Shown piece after piece: positions 8,719-25,620 of a stretch of 64,000 nt of DNA. Below the pieces are notes generated by a model, which did no database searches, was not told the DNA's origin, and saw nothing but the letters and a program-made list of their open reading frames with translations. The translations under genes and the position numbers were made by a program. Numbering within the stretch: the stretch's first letter is position 1; each line of letters starts with the position of its first letter. The stretch comes from Nitrosopumilus sp. (lineage in GTDB: Archaea > Thermoproteota > Nitrososphaeria > Nitrososphaerales > Nitrosopumilaceae): assembly GCA_965214775.1 (NCBI GenBank), contig OZ243974.1, positions 2,464,001 to 2,528,000 of the forward strand. Reading direction: 5' to 3'.

Positions 8719-9241
8719 TCAGGCGACGTTTCCAGTCAGGGTCTTGGCGACCATCTCACTCACGTTGCAACCTTGGGCGCGCCAGTTCATCGTGCATGTC
8801 ATCAGTACGGTGAACATCTCCATGCCCTCCATGGTACGGAGTCTCTGGAATATCTTGCGCGCAATTACGGACGGCCTCAGTATGCGCTCGGCTAGATTGT
8901 TGGTGGGCTCCATGCCCGGATACAGCACGAACGTGTACAGGTATTCTGAGGCATTCTCAAGCTTTGTGGCAAATTTTTTGCAACCTGCCTCCCTGAATGC
9001 TACGGCCAGCGCGCGTGTCTCGACTACCAGCATGTCGTGTTGTTGCTGCCTGACACCGTTCTTCTTCTCCTCCGGTGGTGGTGGCCCCAGCCCCTTGGCA
9101 AAAAGAAATTTTTTCTTGAGGGCATCATACAGTTCGTGGGCCTGCCGGGAAGTCTTGCCGGCGTCCTTGGCCTCCCGGAGTATGTGTGCCCAGCACCACT
9201 GCCTGATCTTGAATACGACATATACGCCGTACCCATCAACT
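8719..9241 (-). pseudogene. IS66 transposase, C-terminal half
   Basis: TVDGYGVY..QWCWAHILRE...EPTNNLAERILRPSVIARKI IS66 motifs. Confidence 0.88.
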
Positions 9242-9315
9242 GTGTCAGGTTTATCACTCCCAGGCAGCAGAACCCCCCTTAAATCAGAGCCGTTCATTGC
9301 AGGGGGGGAAGGACA

Positions 9316-10758
9316 GTGAGTGACACCGCAAAAAAGGCGTGGGGACGGCACCGGAGGCTGCTTGAGGATCCCGACGTGAGGCGGTGGTGCGACAACATCG
9401 CAAGGGGAAGCGTGGTGACGGCCGAGGTCAGGCTGGGCAGGCTCGGCATCTACTGTGAGAGGACCGGCACCACTCCCAGGGCCTTTGCGCAGGCCGGAGT
9501 CGACGACGTGAAGAAAGTGGAGGACATGCTGATGGATCACGTCTCGTTTCTGGAGGGCAGGGGATACGCGCCCTCGTACATAGCAGACATCCTCACGGCG
9601 CTGCGCTCCTGGCTGTCGTTCAACTACGTCAGGCTTGCCCGGAGGATAAGGATCAAGAATGCGGACATTCCGGTGACGCTGGAGGACGAAGTGATTCCGA
9701 CCAGGGAGAGGATCCAGGACGTGCTGGACTCGGCGCCGGCAAGGGAGCGCGTGTCGATATCGCTGATGGCCTTCTCAGGGGTGCGACCGCAGGTGCTGGG
9801 CAACCACCACGGCGAGGACGGCCTCAAGGTGAGGGACATCCCGGATCTGGAGACAGACGGCAACGACGTCTCCTTTGCCCGGACGCCTGCAAGGATAACC
9901 GTAAGGCCGCAGCTGAGCAAGGCGGGACACCAGTACTTTACGTTCCTGCCAGAGGCCGGGTGCAGGTACATGCAGGGATACCTCAGGGAGAGGATCGCGG
10001 GGGGCGAGAAGATCGGACAGGACTCGCCCATAATCACGTTCGTGAGGGGGTACCGCGCAAAGTCAGGCGGCAAGACGTGTCACGTGAGGACGGTCACGGT
10101 GGCCAAGGGGATCAAGGGCGCCTTTGGCATAATCATGAGGGAGCGGCCCTACGTCCTGAGGTCGTACTTTGACACGCAGCTGCTGCTTGCAGAGAGCAGG
10201 GGCGCGATGACGCACGCGTACCGCCAGTTCTTCATGGGCCACAGGGGCGACATCGAGGCAAGGTATACCACCAACAAGCACAGGCTTGCCGACGAGCTCG
10301 TATCGGACATGAGGGAGGCCTACGGGCGCAGCCAGGGGTTCCTCGTACCGGGCGCCGAGGGGGAGGAGGCGGCGGCATCAAAGGACAGAAGGGAGCTGCT
10401 GCTTGAGATGTGGAGGGAGCAGGCGCAGCTGTACGGAATCGACCCCGTGAAGATAAGGATAGAAAGGCAGGGGGCGTCATCATCATCGCAGGGCAAAAGA
10501 GCCGGGCAGGCAGCTGCCGCAGATGATCAGATAGGCGCCATCAAGGCGGCCATTCAAAGGATAATCAGGGGGGAGGGCGGGGCACAGCCACTGGCAGGCG
10601 GCAAAAAGCCATACGAGGGCAGGCTGGTCGACGGCGAGAAGGATCTCGTGGCGTGCATCGAGGACGGATGGGAGGTCATAAGGGAGCTGAACGGCGGCAA
10701 GGTCCTTCTAAGACGCAGCACCGCAGGCGGGAGGGCGCCCCGTCACCCCGGCCAGTGA
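9316..10758 (+). CDS. Tyrosine recombinase / site-specific integrase (archaeal type)
   Basis: SGVRP (R), LSKAGH (K), RPYVLRSYF (YxxR in place of HxxR), FMGH, EARY (Tyr nucleophile); N-terminal SAM-like region. Confidence 0.9.
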   Translation: MSDTAKKAWGRHRRLLEDPDVRRWCDNIARGSVVTAEVRLGRLGIYCERTGTTPRAFAQAGVDDVKKVEDMLMDHVSFLEGRGYAPSYIADILTALRSWLSFNYVRLARRIRIKNADIPVTLEDEVIPTRERIQDVLDSAPARERVSISLMAFSGVRPQVLGNHHGEDGLKVRDIPDLETDGNDVSFARTPARITVRPQLSKAGHQYFTFLPEAGCRYMQGYLRERIAGGEKIGQDSPIITFVRGYRAKSGGKTCHVRTVTVAKGIKGAFGIIMRERPYVLRSYFDTQLLLAESRGAMTHAYRQFFMGHRGDIEARYTTNKHRLADELVSDMREAYGRSQGFLVPGAEGEEAAASKDRRELLLEMWREQAQLYGIDPVKIRIERQGASSSSQGKRAGQAAAADDQIGAIKAAIQRIIRGEGGAQPLAGGKKPYEGRLVDGEKDLVACIEDGWEVIRELNGGKVLLRRSTAGGRAPRHPGQ

Positions 10759-10952
10759 CCCGGCCGGCCCTCCATTTTCTGGCACGCCATCCCGGACGTT
10801 GCGGAGGGCGGCGCGTTGATCAGCTCAGGCCGCCTCCATGATGCCTGCATCTGCCCCGTCCGAGATCTCCACGTGCAGACAGCAGTGGGGATTCCTCCTG
10901 AAATGCCAGACCGGACCGGATGACCACGATGCAACGCCATCCTCCCGGAAGC

Positions 10953-11021
10953 TGGCAACGGTTGCCAACTAGCGGGAACCTTTCTTCTCTGTAGTTGGCA
11001 ACGGTTGCCAACTAGCGGGAA
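10953..11021. repeat. 43-bp-period repeats with 23-bp palindromes, cluster 1
   Basis: TGGCAACGGTTGCCAACTAGCGGGAA at 10953 and 10996. Confidence 0.85.
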
Positions 11022-11151
11022 TCAGCAGATCCGACTGTACCTGAAGACGCGGCAGAACGCCACGTTTTGACGATCATCTGATCCGTAGCGAACAGGCACA
11101 AAGATCCATGAGGAGCCAAGCAGGGAGGAGAAAAAGGCGCATGTGTAACCG

Positions 11152-11440
11152 CCATTTGATCTCCGGCCTTGAGAGGATCAAAGCCGTGGTCGTCAAAGGT
11201 ATTGCCATGCTTGCCTGCACCACGACTCGGGATGCTCCGCCCGCATCACCCGTCCTGAGATCTTTTCCCGCAGGCCTTGCCCCCACAGGCTTTCATTGTC
11301 GTGCCGTTTGACTCGTCGTCCACCGGAAGAAGCTCCATGCCCCAAGCCACAGCCTGTCTGCAAGTCTCTTTGGGACGCCGGACACGGCTGCCCCGCTGCC
11401 GTGCCCACAGATGACCCCGGGCCATGCCTTTCGTACGGAT
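11152..11440 (-). pseudogene. Decayed AbrB-like gene, array module 1
   Basis: Minus frames give VRKAWPGVICGHGSGAAVSGVPKRLADRLWLG and ...LSRPEIK; frameshifted, stop lost; close paralog of module 2. Confidence 0.6.
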
Positions 11441-11559
11441 TCCGTGCGTCCAGAGCCTGGACAAACTCAGGGCGTGTCTTTGCAAGCTTTGCAAAAAAAC
11501 CTTGCAATCTTTGCAAAGACGTTCGTGGCAGGCTGACTCGCATTACCCTGTGGTTTCCC

Positions 11560-11850
11560 AAAAAACGAGACCAGAGCGCCCGGGCCCTCAACGAGGCCCC
11601 TGACCCCACACAGCCTTCCGGGGAGTCAGAGTCGTCCCGGTCCCTTATCTTCACCTGAGTGAAAAATTCCCTCAGGCCCCACACTGTCATTCCGGATCGA
11701 GGGCCGAGGCATTCTCGCGGGCTGAAATCACTACGATTAATCACAGATGACTGATCTCAAGACTTCACAATGATGTCATGTCTGGGGAAGGGGTCGAAAC
11801 TGTCAGAAAACATGGCAGGAACCAAAGCATGAGAAACAGAGTTGTAAACA
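11560..11850. repeat. Conserved hairpin-rich module core, copy 1 of 4
   Basis: GGGCCC hairpin-CTGACCCC-CCGGG..CCCGG hairpin-CACCTGAGTGAA..CCTCAG; recurs near 12988, 13915, 15278. Confidence 0.85.
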
Positions 11851-11901
11851 GCTGCCGGGAGCACGTAAGGTACAACATGACAAAGTGGAAAGAGATGTAG
11901 C

Positions 11902-11982
11902 GCGCACATCAAAAAATGGATCATGGTTTTGCCGCATCGTGCCTATTTCGATAAAAAACATCCCGTTTTCGACTGTGCGCAC
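11902..11982. repeat. ~80-bp dispersed MITE-like repeat
   Basis: GCGCAC...GTGCGC ends; inverted homologs at ~54397-54474 and, partially, 43797-43840. Confidence 0.6.
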
Positions 11983-12315
11983 CATGACCGGCCATCCTTC
12001 GGGCATTCTGCCTTACCGCATAATCCTGCCTGAAATTTGAAACTTGGCAAAAAAATCACCAAGATGATCAGCGGATCCCCGGCCAAGAGGGCCAGGGATC
12101 ATCGATGATGGGAGGTTGCCCCCGGGCGGCACTGCCTGCCGGGATCTTGGTGATCATGTCCACATATCGCATCCCGGGGATGGGGCAAGCTCTTGCCTTG
12201 GCGATCCCCCGATGATATCTGCGTTTATCCTGCGAGTTCCCCTCGGGCAGGCAGCAGTGAGTATTTTCCTAAAGCGCCAAAGGCCGAGCCGGATGACCGC
12301 AATGCAACACCGCAA

Positions 12316-12430
12316 TCTTCCCTGTAGTGGACTACAGTAGCCCACTAGCGGGAACTTTTCTTCCCTGTAGTGGACTACAGTAGCCCACTAGCGGGAACTT
12401 TTCTTCCCTGCTACTGGCAACCGTTGCATG
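12316..12430. repeat. 43-bp-period repeats with 23-bp palindromes, cluster 2
   Basis: TAGTGGACTACAGTAGCCCACTAGCGGGAACTTTTCTTCCCTG at 12325 and 12368, plus a degenerate TGGCAACCGTTGCA unit. Confidence 0.85.
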
Positions 12431-12438
12431 TGTAATCA

Positions 12439-12745
12439 TCATTTGATCTCCGGCCTTGAGAGCGGATCAAAGCCGGGATCATCAAAGGAATTGTCGTGTC
12501 TGGGCCTGTCCCGCGCCTTTGAGGGCGCGCCGTCCACACCGCCCGTCTTGAGATCCTTTTTTGCAAGCCTTGCCTTCATCGGCTTTGCCATTGTCGTGCC
12601 GTCTGACTCGCCCGTCAGGAGAAACCCCTCCCCCCCTCTATGCTCCAAGCCACAGCTTGTATGCAAGTCTCTTTGGGACGCTGGACACGACTGCCCCACT
12701 GCTGTGCCCGCAGATGACTCTGGGCCATGTTTTTTGTACAAGTTA
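12439..12745 (-). pseudogene. Decayed AbrB-like gene, array module 2
   Basis: QKTWPRVICGHSSGAVVSSVPKRLAYKLWLGA* then a frameshift into ..RLAKKDLKT..DPLSRPEIK*. Confidence 0.62.
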
Positions 12746-12822
12746 CATGCATTCAGAGCTTGAAACAAACTCAGGGCACGTTTTTGCAAGCTTTGCAAAA
12801 AAACCTTGCAAGCTTTGCAAAG

Positions 12823-12940
12823 GTAACAGGTTAGCCCCTGCCTAGAGTTGGAGTTGCATCCCTTGCCGGCCAGGCATGAAAATCACAACTGCAGGCAGAT
12901 TCATGCCTGATTGCTGCTTAGGCAGGGGCTAACCTGTTAC
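12823..12940. mobile_element. 118-bp MITE with IS66-like GTAA ends
   Basis: Perfect 22-bp TIR GTAACAGGTTAGCCCCTGCCTA; 8-bp TSD TTGCAAAG (12815-12822, 12941-12948); empty site visible in the paralog at ~11511. Confidence 0.92.
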
Positions 12941-12987
12941 TTGCAAAGACATTCGTGGCAGGCTGACTCGCATTACCCCGTGATTTT

Positions 12988-13280
12988 CCAAAAAACAAGA
13001 CCAGGATGCCCGGGGCCCTCAACGAGGCCCCTGACCCCACACAGCCTTCCGGGGAGTCAGAGTCGTCCCGGTCCCTTATCTTCACCTGAATGAAGAACTT
13101 CCTCAGACCCCACACTGTCATTCCGGATCGAGGGCCGAGATATCCTCGCTGGCTGAAATCATTACGATTAATCACAGAGGACTAATCTCAAGATTTCATA
13201 ATTATGTCATGTCTGGGGAAGGGGCCGAAACTGTCAGAAAACATGGCAGGAACCAAAACATGAAAAACAGAGTTGTAAAC
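12988..13280. repeat. Conserved hairpin-rich module core, copy 2 of 4
   Basis: Near-identical to 11560-11850. Confidence 0.85.
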
Positions 13281-13425
13281 AGCCATTGGGAGCACGTAAT
13301 ATACAACATGACAAAGTGGAAAAAGATAGGGCTTGACAGGTGTCACATATGGTCCAAAAGCCCCCAGATACACCAGATTCACGCCTCCCTTGTGGATGAG
13401 GAGAAAAGAGACGTAAGGCTGATGT

Positions 13426-13734
13426 CTATTTGATCCTGAATTTTTCCAAGGCACTCGTCCTAGGGGCGGCCTCTCCGGCGGGGGAGCCTTCGTTCTTTTG
13501 TCTGCATTCCCTCATTGCCTCATCAAAGACCCGCTCATATCGGTCAATGTCTGTGAGGTCCTTTTTTGACAGGCTCTTTCCACCCGGTGTCAGCACGATT
13601 TTGCCGCCAAGGTCGTGGAACCGTATGTGTTCGCCTGATCTCAAACCTAGGCTTTGTACCATCACGGACGGAACGACCACAAAAAATGAACAATTGTCCT
13701 TGATGCGGAGCCTTCGCTCATGTATTTTTTCCAT
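13426..13734 (-). CDS. AbrB/MazE-like DNA-binding protein, array module 3 (102 aa)
   Basis: ERRLRIKDNCSFFVVVPSVMVQSLGLRSGEHIRF swapped-hairpin pattern; CTTAAA TATA about 26 nt upstream of ATG; ends ..EKFRIK. Confidence 0.75.
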   Translation of the reverse strand: MEKIHERRLRIKDNCSFFVVVPSVMVQSLGLRSGEHIRFHDLGGKIVLTPGGKSLSKKDLTDIDRYERVFDEAMRECRQKNEGSPAGEAAPRTSALEKFRIK

Positions 13735-13769
13735 GCCGTCAGCAAATGTTGGATATTCATTTAAGACTC

Positions 13770-13855
13770 GGTGCCAAAGGCGCCAAAAAATGGCGCCAAA
13801 GGTGCGTTTGGTACCTGCCCGACAGGGGCCAAAGGCGCCAAAAAATGACGCCAAA
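13770..13855. repeat. Six GGCGCCAAA-type direct repeats upstream of module 3 AbrB
   Basis: Copies at 13770, 13779, 13792, 13825, 13834, 13847 (two blocks, 55-bp period). Confidence 0.85.
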
Positions 13856-13914
13856 GGCCCTAATCTCCGAGGGCCAGTAACGGAATTTCAACTCGCATTA
13901 ATACACAAAACACG

Positions 13915-14195
13915 AAAAACGAAACCAGAACACAAGGGCCCCCGAAGGGCCCCCTGACCCCCCACAGCCTTCCGGGACGCCGAACCGTCCCAGTCCCTTA
14001 TCTTTACCTGAGTGAAAAATTCCCTCATATCCCATTGAATCAGGCAATCGTCTTTGGATAGACAGGATGAAATCATGCCCGCCAACCGGGAATCATTACA
14101 GTTAACCCCGGATGATTGATTTCAAAATTAGTGTCATGTCCGGAGGAATATCAAGAACCATGGCAGGAATCAAGAACATGAAAAACAGAGTTTAT
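13915..14195. repeat. Conserved hairpin-rich module core, copy 3 of 4
   Basis: GGGCCC-CCGAA-GGGCCC, CTGACCCC, GGGACG/CGTCCC, ACCTGAGTGAAAAATTCCCTCA. Confidence 0.8.
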
Positions 14196-14567
14196 CAATT
14201 CTGAGGATATTGGCTATTTCCCTTTCTATCCTGTCATGATACATCATGTGTCTCGGAATCTTTTGAATCTTTTGCACGCCAAAAATCTGTAATTTTTAAT
14301 CACTCATTGGCTGTCATAGGAATCATCCGGGGAGATCATCTTCCCAAGGACAGGACGGGGGCCTTGTCGCCTGTGGTTGCAGGATGCCCTAAAAGCAGAG
14401 TCCGCAGCTCCGGATAAAGCCGTCCCGGGCATGTCAGATACAACATGGCAAAGCGGAAAAACTTGGCTTTGAGCAGTGTCACGTGTGGTCAAGGAACCCA
14501 AAGGTTCACGAGATCCTCGCCGGCCTTGACGAAAAAGAGGGACGGATGTCAGGACTGGTGTCATTTG
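14112..14567 (+). pseudogene. Decayed unknown ORF ('X') convergent with the next AbrB gene
   Basis: Peptide blocks conserved among modules (SE[DG]IGYFPFYPV..SRNLLN; HV[RI]YNM[AT]K; CH[IV]WS) interrupted by stops and frameshifts. Confidence 0.5.
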
Positions 14568-14827
14568 ATGTGGAGTTTTTTGAGCTTTTCTGCAGACAGA
14601 TCCGTCTCCCTCATCATGTCGTCCAGAACCCTGTCGTACTTGGTCCTGCCCTTCTCCGGGACATCTGCTGTATGCGCGGGGATCAGCTCCAGCCTGTCCG
14701 GGTGCGCCCCGAACTCGACGAGCTGGCCCTCGGCAATGCCGAGATCGTCTGCCAGCGCCTTTGGAACCGTAACGATGAGGCTGTCGCCCTGCCTGCGCAC
14801 CTTTCTGTAGTGTTTTCTTTCAGACAC
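14561..14827 (-). CDS. AbrB/MazE/SpoVT-family DNA-binding protein, array module 4 (88 aa)
   Basis: YRKVRRQGDSLIVTVPKALADDLGIAEGQLVEF classic AbrB motif; GTG start about 23 nt after CTTAAA; ends ..KKLHIK. Confidence 0.85.
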   Translation of the reverse strand: MSERKHYRKVRRQGDSLIVTVPKALADDLGIAEGQLVEFGAHPDRLELIPAHTADVPEKGRTKYDRVLDDMMRETDLSAEKLKKLHIK

Positions 14828-14879
14828 ATACTGTAACCGTGTTCTTTGATTTAAGGGCCAGAGTTTTTTTGCAAAATGT

Positions 14880-15222
14880 ACATAATGTAGCTTTTCACTA
14901 TTTTCAGGCTTCAAAAAGCTACATTTTCACTACTTCCGGTTCAACATAATGTAGCTTTTCACTATTTTCAGGCTTCAAAAAGCTACATTTTCACTACTTT
15001 TCAAATCACTATTTTCACTACTTTCACTACTTTTCAAATCACTATTTTCACTACTTTCACTACTTTTCAAATCACTATTTTCACTACTTTCACTACTTTT
15101 CAAATCACTATTTTCACTACTTTCACTACTTTTCAAATCCATACTTTCACTATTTTTTGCACTCACAAATCCATACTTTCACTATTTTTTGCACTCACAA
15201 ATCCATACTTTCACTATTTTTT
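14880..15222. repeat. TTTCACTA-based tandem repeats upstream of module 4 AbrB
   Basis: 33-bp unit TTTCAAATCACTATTTTCACTACTTTCACTACT about 4 times, plus duplicated flanking variants. Confidence 0.9.
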
Positions 15223-15277
15223 GCCCCATGATTTCAACTCCCACACACCAGACCTCTCGCATTATACCACCACACAC

Positions 15278-15550
15278 GAGAAACGAGACCGGCCCGCCCG
15301 GGCCCCTACGGGGGCCCTTGACCCCCGACAACCTTCTGGGACGTCAGAGCCGTCCCAGCCCCTTGAGTCCTACCTGAATGAAGAACTTCCTCAGACTCCA
15401 TACCATAGCTAAGCCGACGAGATAAAACCAACCATCCACGGGCTATCATTAACCACAGATAACCAATTTTAAAATCATAATATCATGTACGGAGGAATGT
15501 CAAGAATCATGACAGGAGTCAAATGACCATGAAAACACGGAGTTTACAAA
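15278..15550. repeat. Conserved hairpin-rich module core, copy 4 of 4
   Basis: GGGCCCC-TACG-GGGGCCC and CTGGGACG-N7-CGTCCCAG; homology to copy 3 continues to ~15655. Confidence 0.8.
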
Positions 15551-15706
15551 ATCTGAGGGTATTGGCTATTTCCCTTTCTATCCTGTCACGATGTACTACA
15601 CGTCTCGGAATCTTTTGAACTTTTTGCCCCTCAAGATTCATGATATTTTTAATCATTCTTTGGTTATCATCAGATCATTTGAGAATATTAGACTTTATGC
15701 GTAATC

Positions 15707-16900
15707 GGGGTTGTCCAAAAAATTTCCGCAAAACGACCGACAAGCTTATAGATCATGAGCGCACGGCGCCGAAAATGATTTTGATCTGCCGATCCTGGAT
15801 ATCCCAATGAGCAACAACAGGAAGGACACGGACTATAACCGCCTTTACGAGCAAAAGCGCAGGCAGGAGAGCTCCCGCAAGAAGAGGACAAGGAGGAACC
15901 TGGGAAAGATCGTACGCAGGGTGGCCAAGAAGATGGCCGCCGAAACGGGAATCGATGCCGGCCTTGCGTGGTCTGCCATACGCATTGCGATCCTCAGAAT
16001 CGAGAATCGCCTGTCCTACAGGAGGATGGTCACGCACCTGGAGTCAAACCCGGACGATCTCAGGAGATGCGGCCTGAGTCGTACGCTCTCCAAGTCGACG
16101 CTGCACAACAGGATGACCATGCTCTGGAGAATGGGCAAGGACTTTATGGACGAGGTCGTACTGGCCATGTCCGAAGGCGAGCGCATAGCGGACCTGCACG
16201 GCGACTCGACGGGATTCGGCCTCCGCAAGTACAAGAGCTGGAGCCACGCAAAACATGGGGAGGTGACCGGACACGACTTTGCAAAACTGCACGCAATTGC
16301 TGCAATCGGGGGCAAGATACTGTCATTTGAGGCCACGCCGGGCACGTCGGGGGACTCGCCGGAGTTTGCCCGCATGATGAGCCGCATCCCCAAGGGCGGA
16401 TACGGAATCGTGGCGCTGGATTCGGCATACGACTCGTACAAAAACTGCGAGCTGATTGCAAAGAGCGGCCGCGGACCTGTCATAAAGCCGGCAAAGGGGC
16501 ATGAAAAGCCACGCGGGTTTGGCGCCCGGGCCAGGATGCTGCAGTGGCTGCGTGACAGGCCAGACGAGTTCTGGCAGGCCTATCACAAGAGGAGCCAGGC
16601 AGAGTCCCTGTTCTCGGTAATGAAGGAAAGGGCTGGATCCGTCCTGCGTGCAAAGCTGGACGGAACCATCACTGTAGAGCTGTTCGCTCGCGTGTTGTGC
16701 TACAACCTTACGGTGTAAATCATCACAAATCCCGTACTGTTGGACCGCAACACTACCGTAAGGTATGGCCTGCATGGATATTTGCGTTGCTGTATGCGCC
16801 GTTCTGGCCGTCCGGGGCCGCCAAGTGCTCTATATTGCCGTCTGAGACTGCCTATATCGGGGGCAAATTGGCAGCCTGCGGAAAAAAATTGGACAACCCC
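15707..16900 (+). mobile_element. IS5/IS4-like insertion sequence
   Basis: TIRs GGGGTTGTCCAA.. / ..TTGGACAACCCC; no TSD seen. Confidence 0.8.
15807..16718 (+). CDS. DDE transposase
   Basis: GDSTG, KLHA, LDSAYDS, YHKRSQAESLFSVMK. Confidence 0.88.
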   Translation: MSNNRKDTDYNRLYEQKRRQESSRKKRTRRNLGKIVRRVAKKMAAETGIDAGLAWSAIRIAILRIENRLSYRRMVTHLESNPDDLRRCGLSRTLSKSTLHNRMTMLWRMGKDFMDEVVLAMSEGERIADLHGDSTGFGLRKYKSWSHAKHGEVTGHDFAKLHAIAAIGGKILSFEATPGTSGDSPEFARMMSRIPKGGYGIVALDSAYDSYKNCELIAKSGRGPVIKPAKGHEKPRGFGARARMLQWLRDRPDEFWQAYHKRSQAESLFSVMKERAGSVLRAKLDGTITVELFARVLCYNLTV

Positions 16901-16908
16901 ACACGCGG

Positions 16909-17949
16909 TGTTTCATATGAAAATTAGTTCCGCCCCTCATTAGTATCCTTCTCCATCCATTTGGGGTCGCTTTTCCTGATCGCTTCTGTGGCCTCCCGGC
17001 TCCGGAACGCCATTCTGGGAGTCTCTGCACGCTTGATGTCAAGCGACCAGTGCGTCCTGTGCTCGTTGTAGAACTCGATGAACTCGTCTACCTTCTCAAA
17101 GTGCGTCAGCTCCTTCTCAAGCGTTCTGAACCACCTCTCCAACTTGCCGTTGGTCTGGGGGTGATGCGGACGCGAGTTGAGCAGGACGATGCTGTGCTCT
17201 AGCAGCTCGTTCTCAAACAGCGTGGGCGTCCAGCTGCCCCTTGGGGTACCGCGCCTGGCTGACGTAAAGCAGCTGCCGTTGTCCGAGAGTACCTGGGCCG
17301 GCGTCCCGAACTCTTTGATGGCCTTGCGCAGCACCAGGACTGCGTTCTCCGAGGTCGCGCGCTCAAAGACGCCAAATCCGGTTATGCACCGCGAGGAATC
17401 GTCAAGATATGCCACCAGATTGAGTTTTTCTAGGCGTGAATCCTTCATTTCGTGCCAGTCCACGTGCCACATTGCATTGGAGTACTTGCGCTCATAGCGC
17501 AGCCACTTGAGCTGTCTGGGTCTGGCAGGCGAGCCGTCCGTTATTCCCTCGACCTTCATGATCCTGTATACTGCATGGTAGCTTATCTGCCTGCCTGCGG
17601 CCCTCATGCGCAATGCCAGCCTCTCCACACCCGACGGCATCCGCGCATATGCGTCAAGGACCGCCTCCACATCCACGGGATCCGTGTCCATGCAGGGCCT
17701 TCCTGCCCCGCTCCGTGGCAGGACTGTGCCGGAGCTGCGGAATCTGGCCCATATCTTCCTGACATACCTGTCGCTGATGCCCAGCTCCCGGGCTATCTGC
17801 TTTGCAGGCACGCCCTTTTTCCTCTGCTTTTCTATGTACCGGAGCGACTTTTCCTCCAATTTTTTCCTCACGTTTTTTGATCGGTACAGCCTAAAATAAT
17901 CCTTCAAAGTACGCCTGATCTTAGGCGGAACTAATTTTCGTATGATAGA
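16909..17949 (-). mobile_element. IS481-family insertion sequence
   Basis: 26-bp imperfect TIR TGTTTCATATGAAAATTAGTTCCGCC; 15-bp direct repeat CAACCCCACACGCGG at 16894-16908 and 17950-17964. Confidence 0.88.
16924..17871 (-). CDS. IS481-family (rve) transposase
   Basis: HTH, WHVDW, LDDSSR, LSDNGSCF, HPQTNGKLERW; start set at GTG inside the TIR-bounded interval. Confidence 0.9.
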   Translation of the reverse strand: MRKKLEEKSLRYIEKQRKKGVPAKQIARELGISDRYVRKIWARFRSSGTVLPRSGAGRPCMDTDPVDVEAVLDAYARMPSGVERLALRMRAAGRQISYHAVYRIMKVEGITDGSPARPRQLKWLRYERKYSNAMWHVDWHEMKDSRLEKLNLVAYLDDSSRCITGFGVFERATSENAVLVLRKAIKEFGTPAQVLSDNGSCFTSARRGTPRGSWTPTLFENELLEHSIVLLNSRPHHPQTNGKLERWFRTLEKELTHFEKVDEFIEFYNEHRTHWSLDIKRAETPRMAFRSREATEAIRKSDPKWMEKDTNEGRN

Positions 17950-18000
17950 CAACCCCACACGCGGCGGTAGCCTTTTTAGAAACATGTCCGTAGTCCTGCC

Positions 18001-19413
18001 ATGATCAGGCGCCTTGCCGTAACAGGACTTTTCCTCGTTCTGGCAGCAGCTGCCGCTGCCACCGCGCACGCAGAGGTGCCACCGCCCCCGCTAAAGCAGC
18101 TTGCAGCCGGCGTCTCTCCCGACGGGGTCCTGTGCAGGGAGGGGCTCGTGCTGGTCGTGCGCGACACCGGCGGCGCAGTATGCGTGAGGGATAACACTGC
18201 AGAAAGGATGGGGTGGACCGTAACTATACCAGATGCCGGCACCGCCGAGTCCACGCACCTGCTGCTGCAGGCCGGCGGCCTGGTGCCAGTCGAGATTTCG
18301 GACTATTCTGGGATCGTGTCAGCAAACAACGACTTTGCAGTCGACTTTTACTCACACGTAGCCAGGCAGGAGGGCAAAAACATCGTATTCTCACCGTGGA
18401 GCATCTCCAGCGCCTTTGCACTCGCACACGAGGGGGCGGGGGGCGACACGAGGGACGAGCTCACAGATGCGTTCGGGTTTCCGGAGGAAAAACGCCTGCA
18501 GTTTGGCTCGGCAATGGTGGATCTGAACAGGCCCGACACAGAGTACCGGCTGTCGGTTGCAAACGCACTGTGGCTTGCAGAATGGCTCGAGCCGCTAGAG
18601 GAGTACGTGCAGACCGCAAGGATATACTACGACAGCGGCGTGGAGATGGTGGACTTTGGGTCCGGTGACGCGGTCAAGACGATTAACGGGTGGGTGTCAG
18701 ATAACACCGGCGGCAGGATAAAAGAGGTCATGGCGCCCGGCTCCGTCGGCGCCGCAACGCCGCTGGTCATAACGAATACAGTATACTTCAAGGGCGACTG
18801 GGTGAACACGTTTGGCGGAGGCAGTACCATCGAGGACTACCCGTTCTGGGCGACCCCCGACAAAAAGGTAACGGTTCCGATGATGTACACAAAGGATGTT
18901 GGCTACAGGCACGCAAACGTGGGCACGCACCAGATCCTTGAGATGCCGTACGTGGGCGACCGCATCTCCATGCTAGTACTGCTGCCAAACGAAAAGGGCG
19001 GGATAGGCGAGCTGGAGGGGATGCTGAGCGCCGAGAGCCTCGAGGAGTGGAAGGGAGATCTTGTAGATAAAATACTGCAGGTCTATTTTCCAAGATTCAG
19101 CCTTGACATCTCGTACAATCTAAGAGAGGACCTGTCCGCGATGGGCGTGACCTCGATCTTTGGCGAGGGGGCCGACCTTTCTGGCATCGCCGGGGACGAG
19201 CGGCTGCACGTGTCAGACGCAGTCCACAAGGCGTTCATAAACGTAAACGAAAAGGGGACGGAGGCCGGGGCCACAACTATAATAGCATCTAGTTCGTCAG
19301 GGCCTCCGACGTTTACAGCAGACCACCCGTTTGTCTTTGTCATACAGGACATGGAGACGGGCAACATACTGTTCATCGGAAGGCTGTCCGACCCGTCCCA
19401 GAGCGGCAGGTGA
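18001..19413 (+). CDS. Secreted serpin (serine protease inhibitor) with N-terminal Cys-containing domain
   Basis: Signal peptide, NIVFSPWSI, NTVYFKGDW, hinge EKGTEAGAT, FTADHPFVFVI..ILFIGR. Confidence 0.93.
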   Translation: MIRRLAVTGLFLVLAAAAAATAHAEVPPPPLKQLAAGVSPDGVLCREGLVLVVRDTGGAVCVRDNTAERMGWTVTIPDAGTAESTHLLLQAGGLVPVEISDYSGIVSANNDFAVDFYSHVARQEGKNIVFSPWSISSAFALAHEGAGGDTRDELTDAFGFPEEKRLQFGSAMVDLNRPDTEYRLSVANALWLAEWLEPLEEYVQTARIYYDSGVEMVDFGSGDAVKTINGWVSDNTGGRIKEVMAPGSVGAATPLVITNTVYFKGDWVNTFGGGSTIEDYPFWATPDKKVTVPMMYTKDVGYRHANVGTHQILEMPYVGDRISMLVLLPNEKGGIGELEGMLSAESLEEWKGDLVDKILQVYFPRFSLDISYNLREDLSAMGVTSIFGEGADLSGIAGDERLHVSDAVHKAFINVNEKGTEAGATTIIASSSSGPPTFTADHPFVFVIQDMETGNILFIGRLSDPSQSGR

Positions 19414-19805
19414 GCCGGCACATGGTACGCCACATGTGGGCGTGCCGGCACACGCTGTCCTGCACGGCCGCTGCAGACTATGGATGCACAGCTATCCCGG
19501 CAGGCAACGGCTCGCCCTGGCCGCCTTGATCTACGTCATGTGTGTGGTGCCCAGCTTGGACAATCACTTATCCGTGCGATCCCGACCTCACCGCTGCCCA
19601 GCATGCTGTCCGAACACCATCCTCCGGTGCATCCGTGAGTCATATCTGGGAAGACTGCACCTGTGAGAGGTCAAGGTCGTTGCAACATGCAGGCACGAAT
19701 CTTGTTGCAAGATGATTTGGGCATGGCTGAAAACCGGGGTGGCCCAGCCGATTACCTGCGCCCCATGCAAACGTCTTTTATAAAACACCATGATAATCTT
19801 AAGGC

Positions 19806-22800
19806 ATGAACCAAGCAGTCGCATGTCTTGCCATCCTGCTGCCAGTCTTGCTCTCCGTTCCGGCTTTGTCATTCTCAGAGTCAGGTGAGGTACAAGACAA
19901 CCTGTACAAGTTCGATGACGGCTTTTATGAAAAGATCCAGCACATGCAGAACATGACATCGCATGGAAGGGCAGACAGTTCGGACAACGCAACACTGGCT
20001 GCACATTCCGTAATAATAGTCACAGATGACGGATACGAAGACGGATTGGAGCAAACGCTAAGGGAGATGGGCTCGCGGGACATATTCAAGTCAAAGAGCC
20101 TGGACTTTCTCATCGCCGACGTCCCGGTGAACAGGATAGCGGAGCTGGCAGGCTATGATCACGTCTACAAGCTTGGAGACGGACATGGGGAAATGACATC
20201 GTCGGCATCACCGTCAAGACTACCGCCGGCACTGACACTGGCGCAGGCCAAGGCCGTAGTTGGCGCCACCAACGTAGGCTCCGACGTGTATCCGTATACT
20301 GGCAGGGAGATCACCGTTGGACTGATTGGTACGGGCACGGATTTTACACACCCTGATCTGCAAAACAAGAATGCTGCCTCGCTCCTATGCACCCAACTCC
20401 AATGCATTAATGCTTCACTGCTGGCCGGTACCAACCGTGCCACTTCGACTTCCGCAGTCATAGCATCCAACAGCACCAACCCCGCAATGGCGGGGATGGC
20501 ACCAGACTCCATGATACACGACGCTCGCTTAGCTGGCGTGACTCACGTGGGTGAGAGTTCCGTGGCAAAAAATACCTTTGCCAGGGCACTTGATGAGATG
20601 ATGACCAGCGATATCACTGTGGCACTTTCAATACTGGCAAATACTGAAAGTTATGGATGCAACGACTATTCTGCCCTCACCATTGTCACCGACAGGGCGG
20701 TACACGAGGGCTTGAGCTTTTCCATGGCCATCGGAAACAAACCAGATAACACGGCGGCGTTTCCCCCGCCACACATACAGAAGCTGGCATGCGGCTTTAA
20801 CTACATCAGCGCAGGTGCAGTCGACAAGGACAGAATCCTGTGGAGTGACAGCGTTCCCGGACCTGCCCAGTTCAACACCCCTGGCGGCGACTCACCCAGA
20901 ATAAAGCCCGAGATAACCGCAATCGGCGTAGATCTTGACCTTGCACGGGCCGCAGATCGCAGAAATATGATAAACCGTGACTATGAAATAGACAGCGGCA
21001 CGAGCTTTGCCACCGCCTTTGTGGCAGGCGCCAGTGCCCTGATCCTAGAAAAGCAGCCGGACTACCGGCATCTGGAGATAAAGTCCGCACTGCTGCTCGG
21101 CGCAGACTGGCAGGCAGACACGCCGGCGACGGCAGCAGACTATGATAACCGGAGGGCCGGGATATACGATACCATGAACCGGTACGGCTTTGGCATACTC
21201 AACGCAACGAGATCACTTGACTATGCCAACGACAACCAGTACCCGAACGTCCTGTACGACCAAAGCTCAGGCGACTTTGATGCAAACTCGTACAGGATCT
21301 ACGCAGGCGCAGGCGAGCAGGTAAAGGTGCTGCTGTCCTGGCTGGTGCATCCGAGAGGCACGGTACTGTCGCCCACCCTTCCAATCGGCAGCCCCCACAT
21401 CCAGCTTCCAAGCCAGTACCACAACTATGACCTGGCGGTGACGTTTCCCAACGGCGTGACAAGGACGAGCGACTCTGACGTCCAGAACAACGAGTTCGTC
21501 GTGTTTGACGCGCCGGAGACCGGATTCTACACCATCACCGTGAGCTCCGACGGGACGCTGACGACTGCCATCGGCGAGCCGTACACCCTGGCAAGCACGC
21601 ACGGGATAGACAAGTTCCCATACGACCTCGTCGTCCCGGTCACGGAGTTCGCAGACGACTTTGAGTCGGACCTCTCAAAGTGGGACCTGTCCGGCGACTC
21701 TGACTGGGAGATCGGGGACCCCGACGAGGACGTGCCCGGCGAGAACAGCCGGACAAACCAGGCGCTCATATCGAGCAACTGCGACACTGACTGCATCGCC
21801 ACGACATCCTCGACGTTTGACACGCAGGACGCGCTGACCGTCTCCTTTGACAGGTTCGTTGACTCCAGCGTCGATGCCGGGGAGGGCCTGTTTGTAGAGT
21901 ACTCTGCAGATGGAACCAACTGGATCAATCTTGCAAGCTATACCCACAACAACCGCGAGGACAGCGGCTCGTGGAGCAGCGAGTCCCTGTCCCTGGACAT
22001 CACGGAGGACACCGCAAAGATCAGGTTCGTGGCAAAGTCCAGCTCCTCAAGCGAGCACGTCGAGATAGACAATGTTGCAGTCATGGAAAGTGACGGAGGC
22101 GGACCCTCGGACACGACTGACCCCGTAATCACCGCGCCCGCCGACGTCACGGCCGAGGCCACCGGCGTGCTGACTGCCGTATCCATAGGGCAGGCCACTG
22201 CCATCGACAATCTGGATCCCGACCCGGCGATAACAAACGACGCACCAGAGTCGTTTCCCATAGGCGACACCACAGTCACGTGGACTGCCACGGATGACTT
22301 TGGCAACACGGCCACTGCCACCCAGACTGTTACGATACAGGACACCACGCCGCCCTGGATCACGGCGCCTGCCGACCGTACCGCAGAGGCCACCGGCGTG
22401 CTGACCGTGACATCCATAGGGCAGGCCACTGCCATCGACATTGCCGATCCCGACCCCACAATAACAAACGACGCACCCGCGTCGTTCTCGCTAGGCGACA
22501 CGGTAATCACATGGACTGCCACAGATGATTCGGGCAATGCGGCCACTGCCACCCAGACTGTTACGGTTCAAGATACCACGCCGCCGAGCATCACGGCGCC
22601 TGCTGACCATACAGCAGAGGCCACCGGCGTGCTGACCACAATATCAATAGGGCAGGCCACTGCCACCGACAATCTGGATCCCGATCCTGTCATCACGCAC
22701 GACGCACCAGAGTCATTCCCGCTCGGCGACACCATAGTGACATGGACTGCCACAGATGACTTTGGCAACATGGCGACTGTCACCCAGACTGTTACGATAC

Positions 22801-25292
22801 AGGACACGACACTGCCGAGCATAACCGCACCGCTAGATGTCACAACCGAGGCTTCCGGCGTGCTGACTGTAACATCCATAGGGCAGGCTACGGCCACCGA
22901 CAACTTGGATCCCGACCCGGCAATCACAAACGACGCACCGGAATCGTTTCCCCTAGGTAGCACGACAGTCACGTGGACTGCCACGGATGATTCGGGCAAC
23001 GCGGCCACTGACACCCAGACTGTTACGATACAGGACACGACACTGCCGAGCATAACCGCACCGCCAGATGTCACAACCGAGGCTTCCGGCGTGCTGAGTA
23101 TAATATCAATAGGTCAGGCCACGGCCACCGACACTGCCGATCCCGACCCGGCAATCACAAACGACGCACCGGAATCGTTCCCGCTCGGCGACACCATAGT
23201 GACATGGACTGCCACGGATTCCTCCGATAATGCCGCCACGGCCACACAGACCGTGACGATACAGGACACCACGCCGCCGAGCATCACAGCACCCGCCGAT
23301 CATACGGCCGAGGCTGCCGGCATCATGACAATCCTGAATGCCGGCGACTATGGGACTCCCACCGTGTCTGACATTGCCGATCCCAGCCCCACAATCACAA
23401 ACGACGCACCGGAATCGTTCCCGCTCGGCAACACCACGGTAACGTGGACTGCCGCCGATTCCTCTGGCAACGAGGCGACTGCCGCCCAGACCGTTACGAT
23501 ACAGGATACGACGCCGCCTGCCATCTCCGGCCTGCGCAATATATCCGTGGATGATCCGGCGGGCCGGGGAATGGAAGTCAGCTACGATGCGCCTACAGCT
23601 ACAGACCTCGTAGATGGGGCCGTGGCAGTATCATGCACGCACGAGTCAGGATCGACGTTTGCGCCCGGATTCACCGAGGTGTCATGTATGGCGACAGACG
23701 GCTCTGCAAACTCGCTGCGGGACTGGTTTATCATACACGTGGACGCATCTGACGCCATCCTGGACGTCTCGCAGACCGTGAGCACGGGCCGGTCCACGTG
23801 GAGCGTCACGGGCCCGGACAGGATATTCGCGGGGCAGACCTTCGAGTATACCGTAACCCTCGAGGACGGGGCGAGGCCCAGGGAGGAGGCCCTTGCCGTG
23901 TACAGCGCTGCGCCGGATACGCGGTACCTCGGATGGCATGATCCCGATGCAGACTGCCAGACTATATTGTGCGCGGGGTTTCCCGAACAAAAGCACAACA
24001 CGTACAAGATAGCCAGTGACGAGGACTCGCCGTATACTGCCATGCACAACAAGATGAAAAAGTCCAGATCCAGCCACACCATACTGTTGCAGCCGGCAGC
24101 CGACGCGCCGGCGGGGGCGCAGGCCACAGTCGGCATGCTGGACGCCAGCTACAACCCGGTGGGAGGCATACCGGTAACGGTGATGCCGCCGTCCACGAGG
24201 ACGGTAACGGACGGGGACACCACCTGGAGGATCACGGGCCCCGACAGGATATTTCCGGGACAGACATTCGAGTATACCGTGACCCTTGATGGCACAAGGC
24301 ACCAGCACGACGCCCTTGCCATATACAGCGACTCGCTTACGGTGGACGACTTTGGGGGACTCGCGGATGACTCTGCATGCGGCACGACCGTATGCACTGA
24401 CTTTCCCGGGCAGCGGCGCCGCACGATGGAACTTGACAACCACGCAGGCTCCTCATACGACGTGAGGTATCACACGATCAACGCGCCCGGCTCCCAGTAT
24501 ACGATACTGCTGAGGATCGCCGACGACGCAGACGCGGGAGGCACGTTCAGGGTAGGCCTAGTGGACGGGGACGGAAGTCCGATGGGCGGCATACGGGTCA
24601 CGATCGCCGATCCCGTGACCGTAACGGCCCCCTATGAGGAGCTCGTGGCAGGCCTGTCCTTTGAGGGCAGCTTGGCAGATATCACAGGGGACAACAACGG
24701 CACGGCTGCAGGGGGTATCTCATACGTGGAGGGCAGGATAGGCAGGGGGCTGCAGCTTGACGGCTCTACGAACGTCACCCTCGCGGGGGAGGCCGACTTT
24801 GACTTTGGGCGGACCGACCCGTTCAGCATTGCGTTCTGGCTCAGGCAGGATGCGCCCGTCAACGGCAGCACCATGATAATGTCCAAGGCAGAGTCGTTCG
24901 GCCATACCGGCTCGTACGTGTGGGTATGGGGAGGGGCGCCCAACAGGGTCCTGCTTTCGATACACGACAACTCCACGTTCATAAACGTGCATACACCGCA
25001 ACACATGAACATGTCAGACGGCGCCTGGCACCATATCGCATTCACGTACGACGGCTCGGGCGCAAAGGAGGGACTGAACGCGTATATCGACGGCGAGCAC
25101 CGGGACTATGACCACTTCCGCAGGGGCCAGGGGCTGGCAGGCGACACGACAAACGACCATGCGTTTACGGTGAGGACCACCAGCTGGGGGGACCCCGACA
25201 GGATCGACTCGGTGCTTGACGAGCTGCGCGTGTACGGCGCCGAGCTGTCGGCCCGGCAGGTGCGGCTGCTGCATGCGGCGGGCCTCGGCTAG
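19806..25292 (+). CDS. Giant secreted S8 (subtilase)-like protein with 7 HYR repeats and C-terminal LamG domain; probably catalytically dead
   Basis: Signal peptide; VGLIGTG..HPDL, KPEITAIG, SGTSFATAFVAG; DTTPPxITAP repeats; WHHIAFTYDG..LDELRVY LamG. Confidence 0.88.
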   Translation: MNQAVACLAILLPVLLSVPALSFSESGEVQDNLYKFDDGFYEKIQHMQNMTSHGRADSSDNATLAAHSVIIVTDDGYEDGLEQTLREMGSRDIFKSKSLDFLIADVPVNRIAELAGYDHVYKLGDGHGEMTSSASPSRLPPALTLAQAKAVVGATNVGSDVYPYTGREITVGLIGTGTDFTHPDLQNKNAASLLCTQLQCINASLLAGTNRATSTSAVIASNSTNPAMAGMAPDSMIHDARLAGVTHVGESSVAKNTFARALDEMMTSDITVALSILANTESYGCNDYSALTIVTDRAVHEGLSFSMAIGNKPDNTAAFPPPHIQKLACGFNYISAGAVDKDRILWSDSVPGPAQFNTPGGDSPRIKPEITAIGVDLDLARAADRRNMINRDYEIDSGTSFATAFVAGASALILEKQPDYRHLEIKSALLLGADWQADTPATAADYDNRRAGIYDTMNRYGFGILNATRSLDYANDNQYPNVLYDQSSGDFDANSYRIYAGAGEQVKVLLSWLVHPRGTVLSPTLPIGSPHIQLPSQYHNYDLAVTFPNGVTRTSDSDVQNNEFVVFDAPETGFYTITVSSDGTLTTAIGEPYTLASTHGIDKFPYDLVVPVTEFADDFESDLSKWDLSGDSDWEIGDPDEDVPGENSRTNQALISSNCDTDCIATTSSTFDTQDALTVSFDRFVDSSVDAGEGLFVEYSADGTNWINLASYTHNNREDSGSWSSESLSLDITEDTAKIRFVAKSSSSSEHVEIDNVAVMESDGGGPSDTTDPVITAPADVTAEATGVLTAVSIGQATAIDNLDPDPAITNDAPESFPIGDTTVTWTATDDFGNTATATQTVTIQDTTPPWITAPADRTAEATGVLTVTSIGQATAIDIADPDPTITNDAPASFSLGDTVITWTATDDSGNAATATQTVTVQDTTPPSITAPADHTAEATGVLTTISIGQATATDNLDPDPVITHDAPESFPLGDTIVTWTATDDFGNMATVTQTVTIQDTTLPSITAPLDVTTEASGVLTVTSIGQATATDNLDPDPAITNDAPESFPLGSTTVTWTATDDSGNAATDTQTVTIQDTTLPSITAPPDVTTEASGVLSIISIGQATATDTADPDPAITNDAPESFPLGDTIVTWTATDSSDNAATATQTVTIQDTTPPSITAPADHTAEAAGIMTILNAGDYGTPTVSDIADPSPTITNDAPESFPLGNTTVTWTAADSSGNEATAAQTVTIQDTTPPAISGLRNISVDDPAGRGMEVSYDAPTATDLVDGAVAVSCTHESGSTFAPGFTEVSCMATDGSANSLRDWFIIHVDASDAILDVSQTVSTGRSTWSVTGPDRIFAGQTFEYTVTLEDGARPREEALAVYSAAPDTRYLGWHDPDADCQTILCAGFPEQKHNTYKIASDEDSPYTAMHNKMKKSRSSHTILLQPAADAPAGAQATVGMLDASYNPVGGIPVTVMPPSTRTVTDGDTTWRITGPDRIFPGQTFEYTVTLDGTRHQHDALAIYSDSLTVDDFGGLADDSACGTTVCTDFPGQRRRTMELDNHAGSSYDVRYHTINAPGSQYTILLRIADDADAGGTFRVGLVDGDGSPMGGIRVTIADPVTVTAPYEELVAGLSFEGSLADITGDNNGTAAGGISYVEGRIGRGLQLDGSTNVTLAGEADFDFGRTDPFSIAFWLRQDAPVNGSTMIMSKAESFGHTGSYVWVWGGAPNRVLLSIHDNSTFINVHTPQHMNMSDGAWHHIAFTYDGSGAKEGLNAYIDGEHRDYDHFRRGQGLAGDTTNDHAFTVRTTSWGDPDRIDSVLDELRVYGAELSARQVRLLHAAGLG
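22110..23750 (+). repeat. Intragenic HYR-domain repeats (x7)
   Basis: ~78-aa units DTTxPxITAP..VTWTATD..GN. Confidence 0.85.
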
Positions 25293-25620
25293 CTTGTGCG
25301 ATCACGGCGGGCCCGGCCTGCGGCAAGATCCTGTACTGGCCAGTAAGGATTCTCGAAGTGTTTCATGATCAGACGCCCCTGCAAACGGACGATGACATTG
25401 AAGGATTTGTGACTGCCGGCATGCCCCACAGGCGGCACTGCCTGCCGGGGCCTTTGCTGCCGCGCATTCCGCGCGGTATCTTCCGGAGGGGGCAAGGCTC
25501 TTGTCGCGTATTGGTAGAACGCAATCCAAAACAATTTTAAGCCGACGCATCCGTTGATACGGTGAGCATCTTGATGGGATTCAAACGTGTGGGGGTTTCA
25601 TCGCTTGGGTGTGGTAAACC

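Follow-up and report, generated by a model that had tools for sequence, protein, structure and literature searches.

A repeated three-hairpin cluster in the control region of a thaumarchaeal integrative element family is a candidate structured RNA

LhrC1-5 of Listeria form a tandem family of sibling small RNAs, which contain several stem-loops and unpaired segments rich in C. In plasmid copy control, a repressor is combined with a multi-stem-loop antisense RNA, e.g. in the systems ColE1 RNA I/II, pIP501 CopR/RNAIII, and pMV158 CopG/RNAII. A third kind of described system comprises iteron origins that carry hairpin priming signals, as well as oriT regions, e.g. RSF1010 oriV and R388 oriT. Here we analysed a cluster of three hairpins (H1 to H3) that occurs four times in a stretch of 64,000 nt of a Nitrosopumilus sp. 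genome (contig OZ243974.1, positions 2,464,001 to 2,528,000; the whole stretch is called “the window”, and its first nucleotide is position 1). Each cluster is the 5′ domain of a conserved element of 360-450 nt, which matches no described family and is, in kind, a structured non-coding module of the control region of a mobile element. We regard the cluster as a structured single-stranded domain, most likely of RNA, that opens the repeated regulatory unit of a thaumarchaeal integrative element family.

The likeness to LhrC1-5 lies in head-to-tail paralogous units of ~110 nt with three stem-loops, C-rich linkers, and variable loops. The clusters described here differ in that they are archaeal, reside on a mobile element, and have a set of iterons per unit and often an AbrB-like gene. 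Plasmid copy control regions have a small DNA-binding repressor gene by a three-stem-loop non-coding region and pairing on both strands in common with this locus, but here a downstream Rep gene is missing, the units are arranged in tandem, and the loops are not unit-specific. RSF1010 oriV and R388 oriT likewise combine iterons with inverted repeats of high GC content and a short conserved sequence, all within a non-coding stretch of a few hundred bases, and genes for small DNA-binding proteins also adjoin; in contrast, the present locus has several units with differing iterons, and no initiator or relaxase was detected.

Integron attC/cassette arrays, including those of archaeal integrons (PMC9668308), are alike in that an array of ~1-kb units lies beside a tyrosine-recombinase-type gene, that hairpin-forming repeats show conserved pairing, and that the units contain small antitoxin-like genes. 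They differ from the locus described here in several respects: R''/R' boxes are absent here, three hairpins and a 45-nt leader are found instead of one imperfect palindrome, the unit order is fixed, and the integrase lacks PF00589, points toward the array, and has a different core.

The four clusters of the window, as delimited by the covariance model R1, are located on the plus strand at positions 11576-11688 (cluster 1, 117.8 bits), 13007-13119 (cluster 2, 111.8 bits), 13930-14041 (cluster 3, 107.5 bits), and 15294-15407 (cluster 4, 111.3 bits). The fold z-scores are -2.0 on either strand for cluster 3, and -2.3 (plus strand) and -0.8 (minus strand) for cluster 4, the stems of which occupy 15300-15317 (H1), 15336-15358 (H2), and 15374-15394 (H3). 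Alignment of the copies confirmed that the clusters are real, non-coding, and homologous, with pairing above that of slid-partner controls. The sequence details of the original prediction could all be retrieved: H1 has GGGCC(C) arms with differing loops (CTCAACGAG, CCGAA, and TACG) and is followed by (C/T)TGACCCC in all four copies, H2 has the arms CCGGG/CCCGG in the first two copies and CTGGG/CCCAG in copy 4, and the third motif, ACCTGA[GA]TGAA..CCTCA, is present in every copy. The H2 of copy 3 is half-changed (CCGGG/CCCAG). The arms are CTGGGACG/CGTCCCAG for H2 and CCTGAG../..CTCAGG for H3, and the C-rich linkers TGACCCCC.ACA.CCTTC and GTCCCTTATCTTTA connect the three hairpins.

The element starts at a sharp boundary, AACTCGCATTA, directly after iterons that are specific for the respective unit, and a leader of ~45 nt separates the boundary from H1. 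In the window, the boundary, (T)TTCAACTCGCATTA, is found at 11538, 12968, 13892, and 15256. Based on nhmmer searches and alignments, the element copies, all on the plus strand, were defined as w1 (11538-11900), w2 (12968-13330), and w3 (13892-14333); the fourth copy, w4, was defined by nhmmer (15256-15690), and an insertion sequence (IS) follows it at 15706. The copies w3 and w4 are full length and extend into a second conserved domain, reaching ~440 nt in total, whereas w1 and w2 are truncated and lack the 3′ part of this domain. With a hidden Markov model (HMM) of the element, 11 elements were found in the 2.83 Mb genome, i.e. four in the window, three in an array near 0.578 Mb (array a), and the copies b, c, d, and e. 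A cluster HMM yielded 12 instances in the genome, all 12 inside the 11 elements and none solitary, which shows that the cluster is not independently mobile; two clusters are present in one of the elements, and another contains the second type only. The element copies are 61-96% identical to one another and thus better conserved than the adjoining AbrB-like paralogues (18-36%).

To what extent the pairing is conserved was quantified with two sets of copies. In a model-free alignment of 13 copies from this genome and a second genome, G242, 85.2% of the cells pair, compared with 27-59% for slid partners. For 26 distinct copies from three genomes, in an alignment that was fitted to R1 and thus leans toward structure, the value is 87.3%, compared with 30-58%. 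In this larger set, changes on both sides were seen for 13 of the 23 pairs, and the number of doubly changed cells is 45 vs. 14 ± 3 in shuffles; the observed value was reached by none of 500 shuffles. These results support the view that the structure of the cluster is under selection. The prediction that selection acts on structure and not on a protein is borne out by the two-sided changes, by fully compensated stems in a third genome, G167, and by indels that break the reading frames (of 33 distinct gap runs, 30 have a length that is not divisible by 3).

A covariance model search had been proposed as a check; the model R1 retrieved 12 cluster copies in the own genome, 12 in G242, and five weak ones (25-31 bits) in G167, and it gave no match in two further genomes, G179 and G258. 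G242 is assigned to a different genus of the same family and G167 also to another genus, and the three-hairpin hallmark is found in three genera. In G167, each of the three stems has a different sequence and is fully compensated, i.e. GGGCUCCC/GGGAGCCC for H1, GGGCCGG/CCGGCCC for H2, and CCGGGCCGG/CCGGCCCGG for H3, while the H2 loop CAGAG is retained; these copies fold at z-scores of about -4. The ~45-nt leader before H1 aligns with the leader of the window copies, and an integrase gene with 43% identity to that of the window (E 5e-142) is located directly upstream of the clusters, so that the homology of the G167 copies does not depend on the model alone. The order in G167 is integrase, at least four units of iteron set and cluster, and genes of the Schlafen/AlbA, PLD, and HATPase types, which share a single strand, and the units carry several different iteron families. 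Within the region G167:C1:641001-657000 (L063/L090), downstream of the integrase homologue, at least six families of tandem 20-33-nt repeats are interleaved with the clusters.

None of the 17 stop-to-stop frames over the element matched a Pfam family at E<=0.01. With Rfam 15 at gathering scores, only two tRNAs were found in the whole window and no family at the clusters, and at E<=5 there were eight weak matches, none of them covering the hairpin cluster. Matches to an IS end or a coding sequence, which the original prediction had regarded as potential counter-evidence, were thus not found, nor was a match to an Rfam family. A hairpin pattern search gave no matches in metagenome contigs or in viral contigs, and BLAST with a full element copy found nothing in 40 relatives; the same search against 150 other genomes of the genus gave short matches only, in six of them, and five of these matches were to a block of the 3′ domain (see below). 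Readings as C/D-box, H/ACA, or hammerhead-like RNAs had no support from Rfam and were dropped on a by-eye check only.

Repeats of this kind could also be palindromic operators at which further regulators bind duplex DNA, or a selfish REP-like (repetitive extragenic palindrome) or MITE-like (miniature inverted-repeat transposable element) sequence without own function. The stem sequences are largely conserved in the own genome, hairpins have decayed in some copies, and the genome is IS-rich and contains a true palindromic insert at 12815-12940, as would fit this alternative. However, the spacing of the arms is variable: the H2 of the window consists of two 8-bp inverted arms with a spacer of 7 nt, and across copies this spacer is 7, 8, or 9 nt long, which would not be expected of a site on duplex DNA that is bound by a dimeric protein. 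The replacement of all arms by complementary ones in G167, the absence of solitary copies, and the fixed place and orientation relative to the integrase gene argue in the same direction, and terminal repeats or target duplications were not seen. Therefore, we consider duplex operators or a selfish repeat improbable. An IS end or a MITE is ruled out by the limits of the neighbouring IS (15706-16810), by the absence of solitary copies, and by the separate nature of the palindromic insert.

The units have a length of 0.9-1.4 kb, contain one small gene each, and are associated with three types of iterons. Type A iterons (TTGCAA repeats, repeat family D10) precede unit 1 at 11477-11518 and unit 2 at 12781-12822, in the latter case with the palindromic insert inside (I2). 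Type B iterons (GGCGCCAAAGG repeats, repeat family D19) are found at 13770-13857, and type C iterons, composed of a 33-nt and a 32-nt repeat family (D1 and D3), at 14880-15220. Genes for AbrB/MazE-like proteins are encoded on the minus strand at 13426-13737 (type B) and 14561-14836 (type C). The type B gene matches PF04014 with E 0.0049, which is below the curated cut-off and was scored on the open reading frame (ORF) 13426-13854, and it has a 95% identical orthologue in locus a. The type C gene matches PF04014 with E 1.8e-8, scored on the ORF 14561-14914, and TIGR01439 with E 1.3e-5, the latter below the curated cut-off.

In the whole genome, a MazE/AbrB match lies just upstream of the element and on the opposite strand in six of the 11 cases, one of these matches being below the Pfam cut-off. 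The arrangement of AbrB-like gene and element was also found in an AT-rich relative, L028, which is the only locus outside the own genome with a clear link according to Pfam; the link is weak in L048. The type of the iterons tracks the neighbouring AbrB paralogue, which suggests that the iterons are operators. The unit order A-B-C is common to the window, array a, and, as B-C, the d/e pair. In six of seven loci examined, an integrase-like gene is located upstream of the elements and shares its strand with them and with the genes that follow. The seven loci are six of this genome, five of which fit (window, a, c, and d/e), and G167. The exception is copy b, which lies in a conjugation-type region (genome 606-630 kb; L034, L035).

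Two further features of the units were observed. In type A units, the AbrB-like gene is replaced by a conserved stretch of 320 nt without a family match, which follows pairs of 26-43-nt boxes at 10932-11021 and 12308-12397 that have CTAGCGGGAA at the end and occur in the versions TGGCAACGGTTGCCAACTAGCGGGAA and CTGTAGTGGACTACAGTAGCCCACTAGCGGGAA. Secondly, a small ORF of 41 amino acids (MTKW..CHIWS..) is found on the plus strand at 13308-13433, and its end converges on the AbrB-like gene. ORFs of this type (38-41 amino acids, MTKW..G.E.CH[VI]WS[RK]SP.IH..) overlap the stop of the AbrB-like gene, and other copies are located at 611609(-), 579900(-), and in L015. The ORF is intact with conservative changes in four of ~8 distinct copies and frameshifted in the rest, and the 41-amino acid version has no family match. 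The idea that a decayed toxin gene follows the AbrB genes was also considered and was dropped, as the frames of 86-88 amino acids are not conserved.

We tentatively favour the interpretation that the units represent sibling structured RNAs or leaders, each under the control of its own iteron/AbrB switch. A unit begins at the boundary, right behind its iterons, and comprises the ~45-nt leader, H1 to H3, and, in full copies, a second structured domain; the units follow one another head to tail from the integrase gene up to the cargo genes and have the same orientation as these. The iterons would be operators for the AbrB/MazE-type DNA-binding proteins encoded between the units, and each operator would control the start of a rightward transcript that has the hairpin cluster as its 5′ part. 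The array would thus specify sibling structured RNAs, stand-alone or as leaders, with one repressor each. The stem-loops may act as a fold, e.g. by conferring stability, by guiding processing, or by serving as a protein platform. A rightward transcript is the simplest reading because the integrase, the units, and the cargo are co-oriented and the cluster lies right after the iterons.

Several observations weigh against this interpretation. A one-strand RNA is expected to have more G.U than A.C combinations; in contrast, the 26 copies contain 31 G.T and 47 A.C wobble cells, and the smaller set contains 17 and 23, respectively. Composition-corrected fold z-scores were alike on both strands for all six copies tried, and in all 26 copies the minus strand has the lower raw folding energy, possibly only due to its G-richness. 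A by-eye reading revealed no clear archaeal TATA box or B recognition element (BRE) before the boundary. Some copies lack hairpins: H1 is gone in d and L053, and the copies c, a2, and L057 have a damaged H3. In addition to the lean of the 26-copy alignment mentioned above, the bulk of the covariation rests on one other genome. In the 13-copy set only five of the 23 pairs change on both sides, a value that was reached by 16 of 500 shuffles; within the own lineage, the stems are mostly conserved in sequence. Lastly, the gene survey of G167 covered ORFs of at least 110 amino acids.

The minus strand also offers an alternative, namely that the clusters are 3′ ends or terminator regions of leftward transcripts that originate from the unit on the right. 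The T-run on the minus strand that had been reported for the clusters exists as T5-6 in three of the four window copies, while copy 4 reads TTTCTC. Genome-wide, T5-6 is found on this strand 12-20 nt past H1 in 10 of 11 copies. A scan for terminator-like sites flagged minus-strand sites at three of the four window clusters (10 in the region vs. 5.6 ± 2.2 in shuffles), and next to H3, 20 of 24 copies have a conserved C.A, which would read as U.G on the minus strand. However, the T-run is absent from window copy 4 and from all four G167 copies despite the retention of the hairpins, and in G167 most T-runs are located on the other strand, within iterons. Moreover, three conserved hairpins with conserved linkers are far beyond the needs of termination. 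A function as a terminator thus appears quite unlikely.

The full copies contain a 3′ domain, the core of which is located on the plus strand at 14160-14237 in w3 and at 15509-15589 in w4. In w3, a helix P1 (ATGGCAGGA/TCCTGTCAT) surrounds the block GAGGATATTGGCTATTTCCCT; in w4, P1 is ATGACAGGA/TCCTGTCAC, and the block lies at 15555-15575. The near-invariant block, GAGGGTATTGGNTATTTCCCT, is a short GC stem with a loop of 12 nt. Among 24 distinct copies from four genera, P1 occurs with at least five different fully complementary arm pairs, and the 5′ arm directly precedes RTCAA in 23 of the 24. The arms vary among lineages with their complementarity preserved: ATGACAGGA/TCCTGTCAT, GTGGCAGGA/TCCTGCCAC, CACTGGC/GCCAGTG, TGTAGGC/GCCTACA, TTCGTGGCT/AGCCACGAA, and GCTAACTGGT/GCCAATTAG. 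Judged from these sequences, the 3′ domain looks like a folded strand as well.

In a sample of 401 genomes of the family, the block was detected in 10, representing four of 27 genera; it was also detected in two short metagenome contigs, and at four overlapping loci in genome contigs that all belong to one record; viral contigs gave no match. The two domains are separable, as the 3′ domain occurs unaccompanied by the hairpin cluster in AT-rich relatives, and the single block match of G167 is far away from its hairpin-cluster arrays. In its own right, the 3′ domain forms a compact, separate motif of ~75-150 nt, in which a closing helix that covaries is combined with a middle hairpin that varies and with a conserved hairpin, the loop of which is UAUUGGNUAUUU; the motif was found in the window (14160-14237 and 15509-15589) and in L020-L023, L028, L031, L036-L041, and L048, and no Rfam family matches it. 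The invariant loop showed no complementarity to tRNA genes. A small hydrophobic peptide across the block was rejected, as the frame is open in only about four of nine full copies (by eye).

A short GC stem with an invariant 12-nt loop has, we assume, the general look of a nick site. It would be compatible with a cis-acting DNA site, single-stranded or extruded, in which iterons and hairpins together form an origin-like module of the excised island, i.e. a replication origin, a single-strand initiation signal, or a transfer origin. The direct adjacency of iterons to every cluster would fit such a module, and pairing that is about equal on both strands is expected for folding DNA. In addition, copy b is situated in the above-mentioned conjugation-type region, ~1.2 kb from a TrwB/VirD4-like gene and with genes for VirB4-like and VirB11-like ATPases nearby. 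However, up to four or more tandem units with differing iterons are unlike a single origin, and the fact that the iteron type follows the AbrB paralogue suggests operators rather than an origin. Furthermore, no Rep-like or relaxase gene was found: the 44 ORFs around copy b included no relaxase, the Pfam scan of the window island revealed no replication or transfer genes, and the whole genome had no match to TrwC (PF08751), Relaxase (PF03432), or MobA_MobL (PF03389), although other archaeal types of relaxases are possible. Y1_Tnp (PF01797), indicative of the IS200/IS605 type, also had no match in the genome, while control genomes do match. Taken together, a DNA site of this kind is unlikely but retains some weight. 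The region of L034/L035 also contains an actin-like ParM/ALP gene and genes for a prepilin peptidase, a VirB4/TraG-like protein, and a T2SSE ATPase.

The array is part of an integrated island of 16.4 kb (9241-25631, plus strand), which splits a transposase gene of the IS66 family into two halves at 8719-9540(-) and 25581-26438(-). The junctions were fixed by comparison with intact IS66 copies. The GC content is 0.55-0.61 inside the island and 0.40-0.49 in its flanks. The same comparison located the att core GGTTTATCA on the plus strand at both ends, at 9248-9256 within the imperfect repeat GTCAGGTTTATCAC and at 25627-25635 within AACTGGTTTATCAT. At the left end of the island, a gene for an integrase of 480 amino acids, which belongs to a thaumarchaeal family, is encoded on the plus strand at 9316-10758 and reads toward the array. 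It is called an integrase after homologues named by their source: it has at least 1400 homologues, three of which bear the name “site-specific integrase”. The genome contains 11 paralogous places, and one of the paralogues adjoins an apparent tRNA gene 3′ end (by eye). An R..HxxR..H..Y motif was recognised by eye only, and there was no match to a Pfam family at E<=0.01 (PF00589 included), to a PHROG, or to an NCBIfam entry. Pairwise BLAST with a PHROG-positive integrase of 458 amino acids was not significant, and a PDB sequence search remained empty.

The adjacency to the integrase gene could indicate that the clusters are attC-like or other recombination sites, as had been predicted, and that the units are mobile cassettes. 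The size of the units with one small gene each and the two inverted 8-bp arms of H2 with a 7-nt spacer would be in accordance with this view. However, this spacer varies, and the att core at the island ends is unlike the hairpins and is not found in H1 to H3. A search for pairs of R'' (RYYYAAC) and R' (GTTRRRY) 40-130 nt apart yielded none on either strand of 10700-15800 (shuffles, 0.86 ± 1.3). The A-B-C order is constant in three arrays, and no unit was gained or lost in a second genome with a 99.95% identical island. In addition, the integrase gene points toward the array and lacks PF00589; according to PMC9668308, detection of IntI is based on PF00589 together with an IntI-specific profile. 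These results do not uphold the attC-like site of the original prediction, and a function of the clusters in recombination is very unlikely.

The second genome with this island is G242 (C2 ~3190739-3206070, L091/L092), in which the match has 99.94-99.96% identity and ends exactly at the island limits. Only one stretch, 16909-17947 (an IS), is missing, the array is unchanged, and the flanks differ. A near-identical island in two genera points to a very recent intergenus transfer or to a labelling or assembly problem.

The remaining parts of the island comprise insertions and cargo. Directly after unit 4, an IS occupies 15706-16810; its limits were derived from its other copies and leave the element outside. 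A second IS at 16909-17952 has at least seven genome copies with 99.6-100% identity and dozens of diverged relatives, and the genome is unusually IS-rich for its family. The palindromic insert (12815-12940) has a length of 126 bp with perfect arms at 12823-12844 and 12919-12940, breaks the type A iterons of unit 2, and is polymorphic, since contigs in three of four DNA runs skip it. Compared with its neighbours, it has a 10-30 times higher sequencing depth and is thus a highly repeated MITE-like element, and weak Rfam matches to mir-210 coincide with it. Besides this insert, the DNA contigs of the four runs showed only joints that are explicable by the paralogous arrays. The cargo (18001-25292) encodes a serpin of 470 amino acids, followed by a subtilase of 1828 amino acids with seven HYR domains and a laminin-G-like domain.

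The proposed sibling RNAs or leaders can be extended to a more far-reaching, rather unlikely version, in which each unit is a self-contained switch: its own AbrB-family protein would read the iteron operator and drive a conserved structured RNA, and the array would be a bank of RNAs that control the host, rival elements, or the maintenance of the island itself. One possible form would be an RNA effector that is restrained by a labile repressor, i.e. a repressor-guarded RNA addiction module. In the accessible portions of the literature on thaumarchaeal elements, nothing like such an RNA array was found.

According to PMC6563490, the majority of the elements integrated in genomes of ammonia-oxidising archaea are “cryptic” and have the integrase as the only signature gene. 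For one such family, the results add a conserved non-coding hallmark, i.e. an integrase gene followed by repeated combinations of iterons and a three-hairpin cluster and by defence-like or secreted-protein cargo. The family is active, as the hallmark occurs in three genera and two genomes from different genera share the island at 99.95% identity. The hallmark offers an entry point to the question of how such islands are regulated or propagated. It is a compact candidate for a new archaeal structured RNA or a single-strand DNA signal, and a covariance model is ready for wider searches. If the units are indeed self-contained switches, they would represent a kind of regulatory or addiction RNA array that, as far as the accessible literature covers it, has not been described in Archaea.

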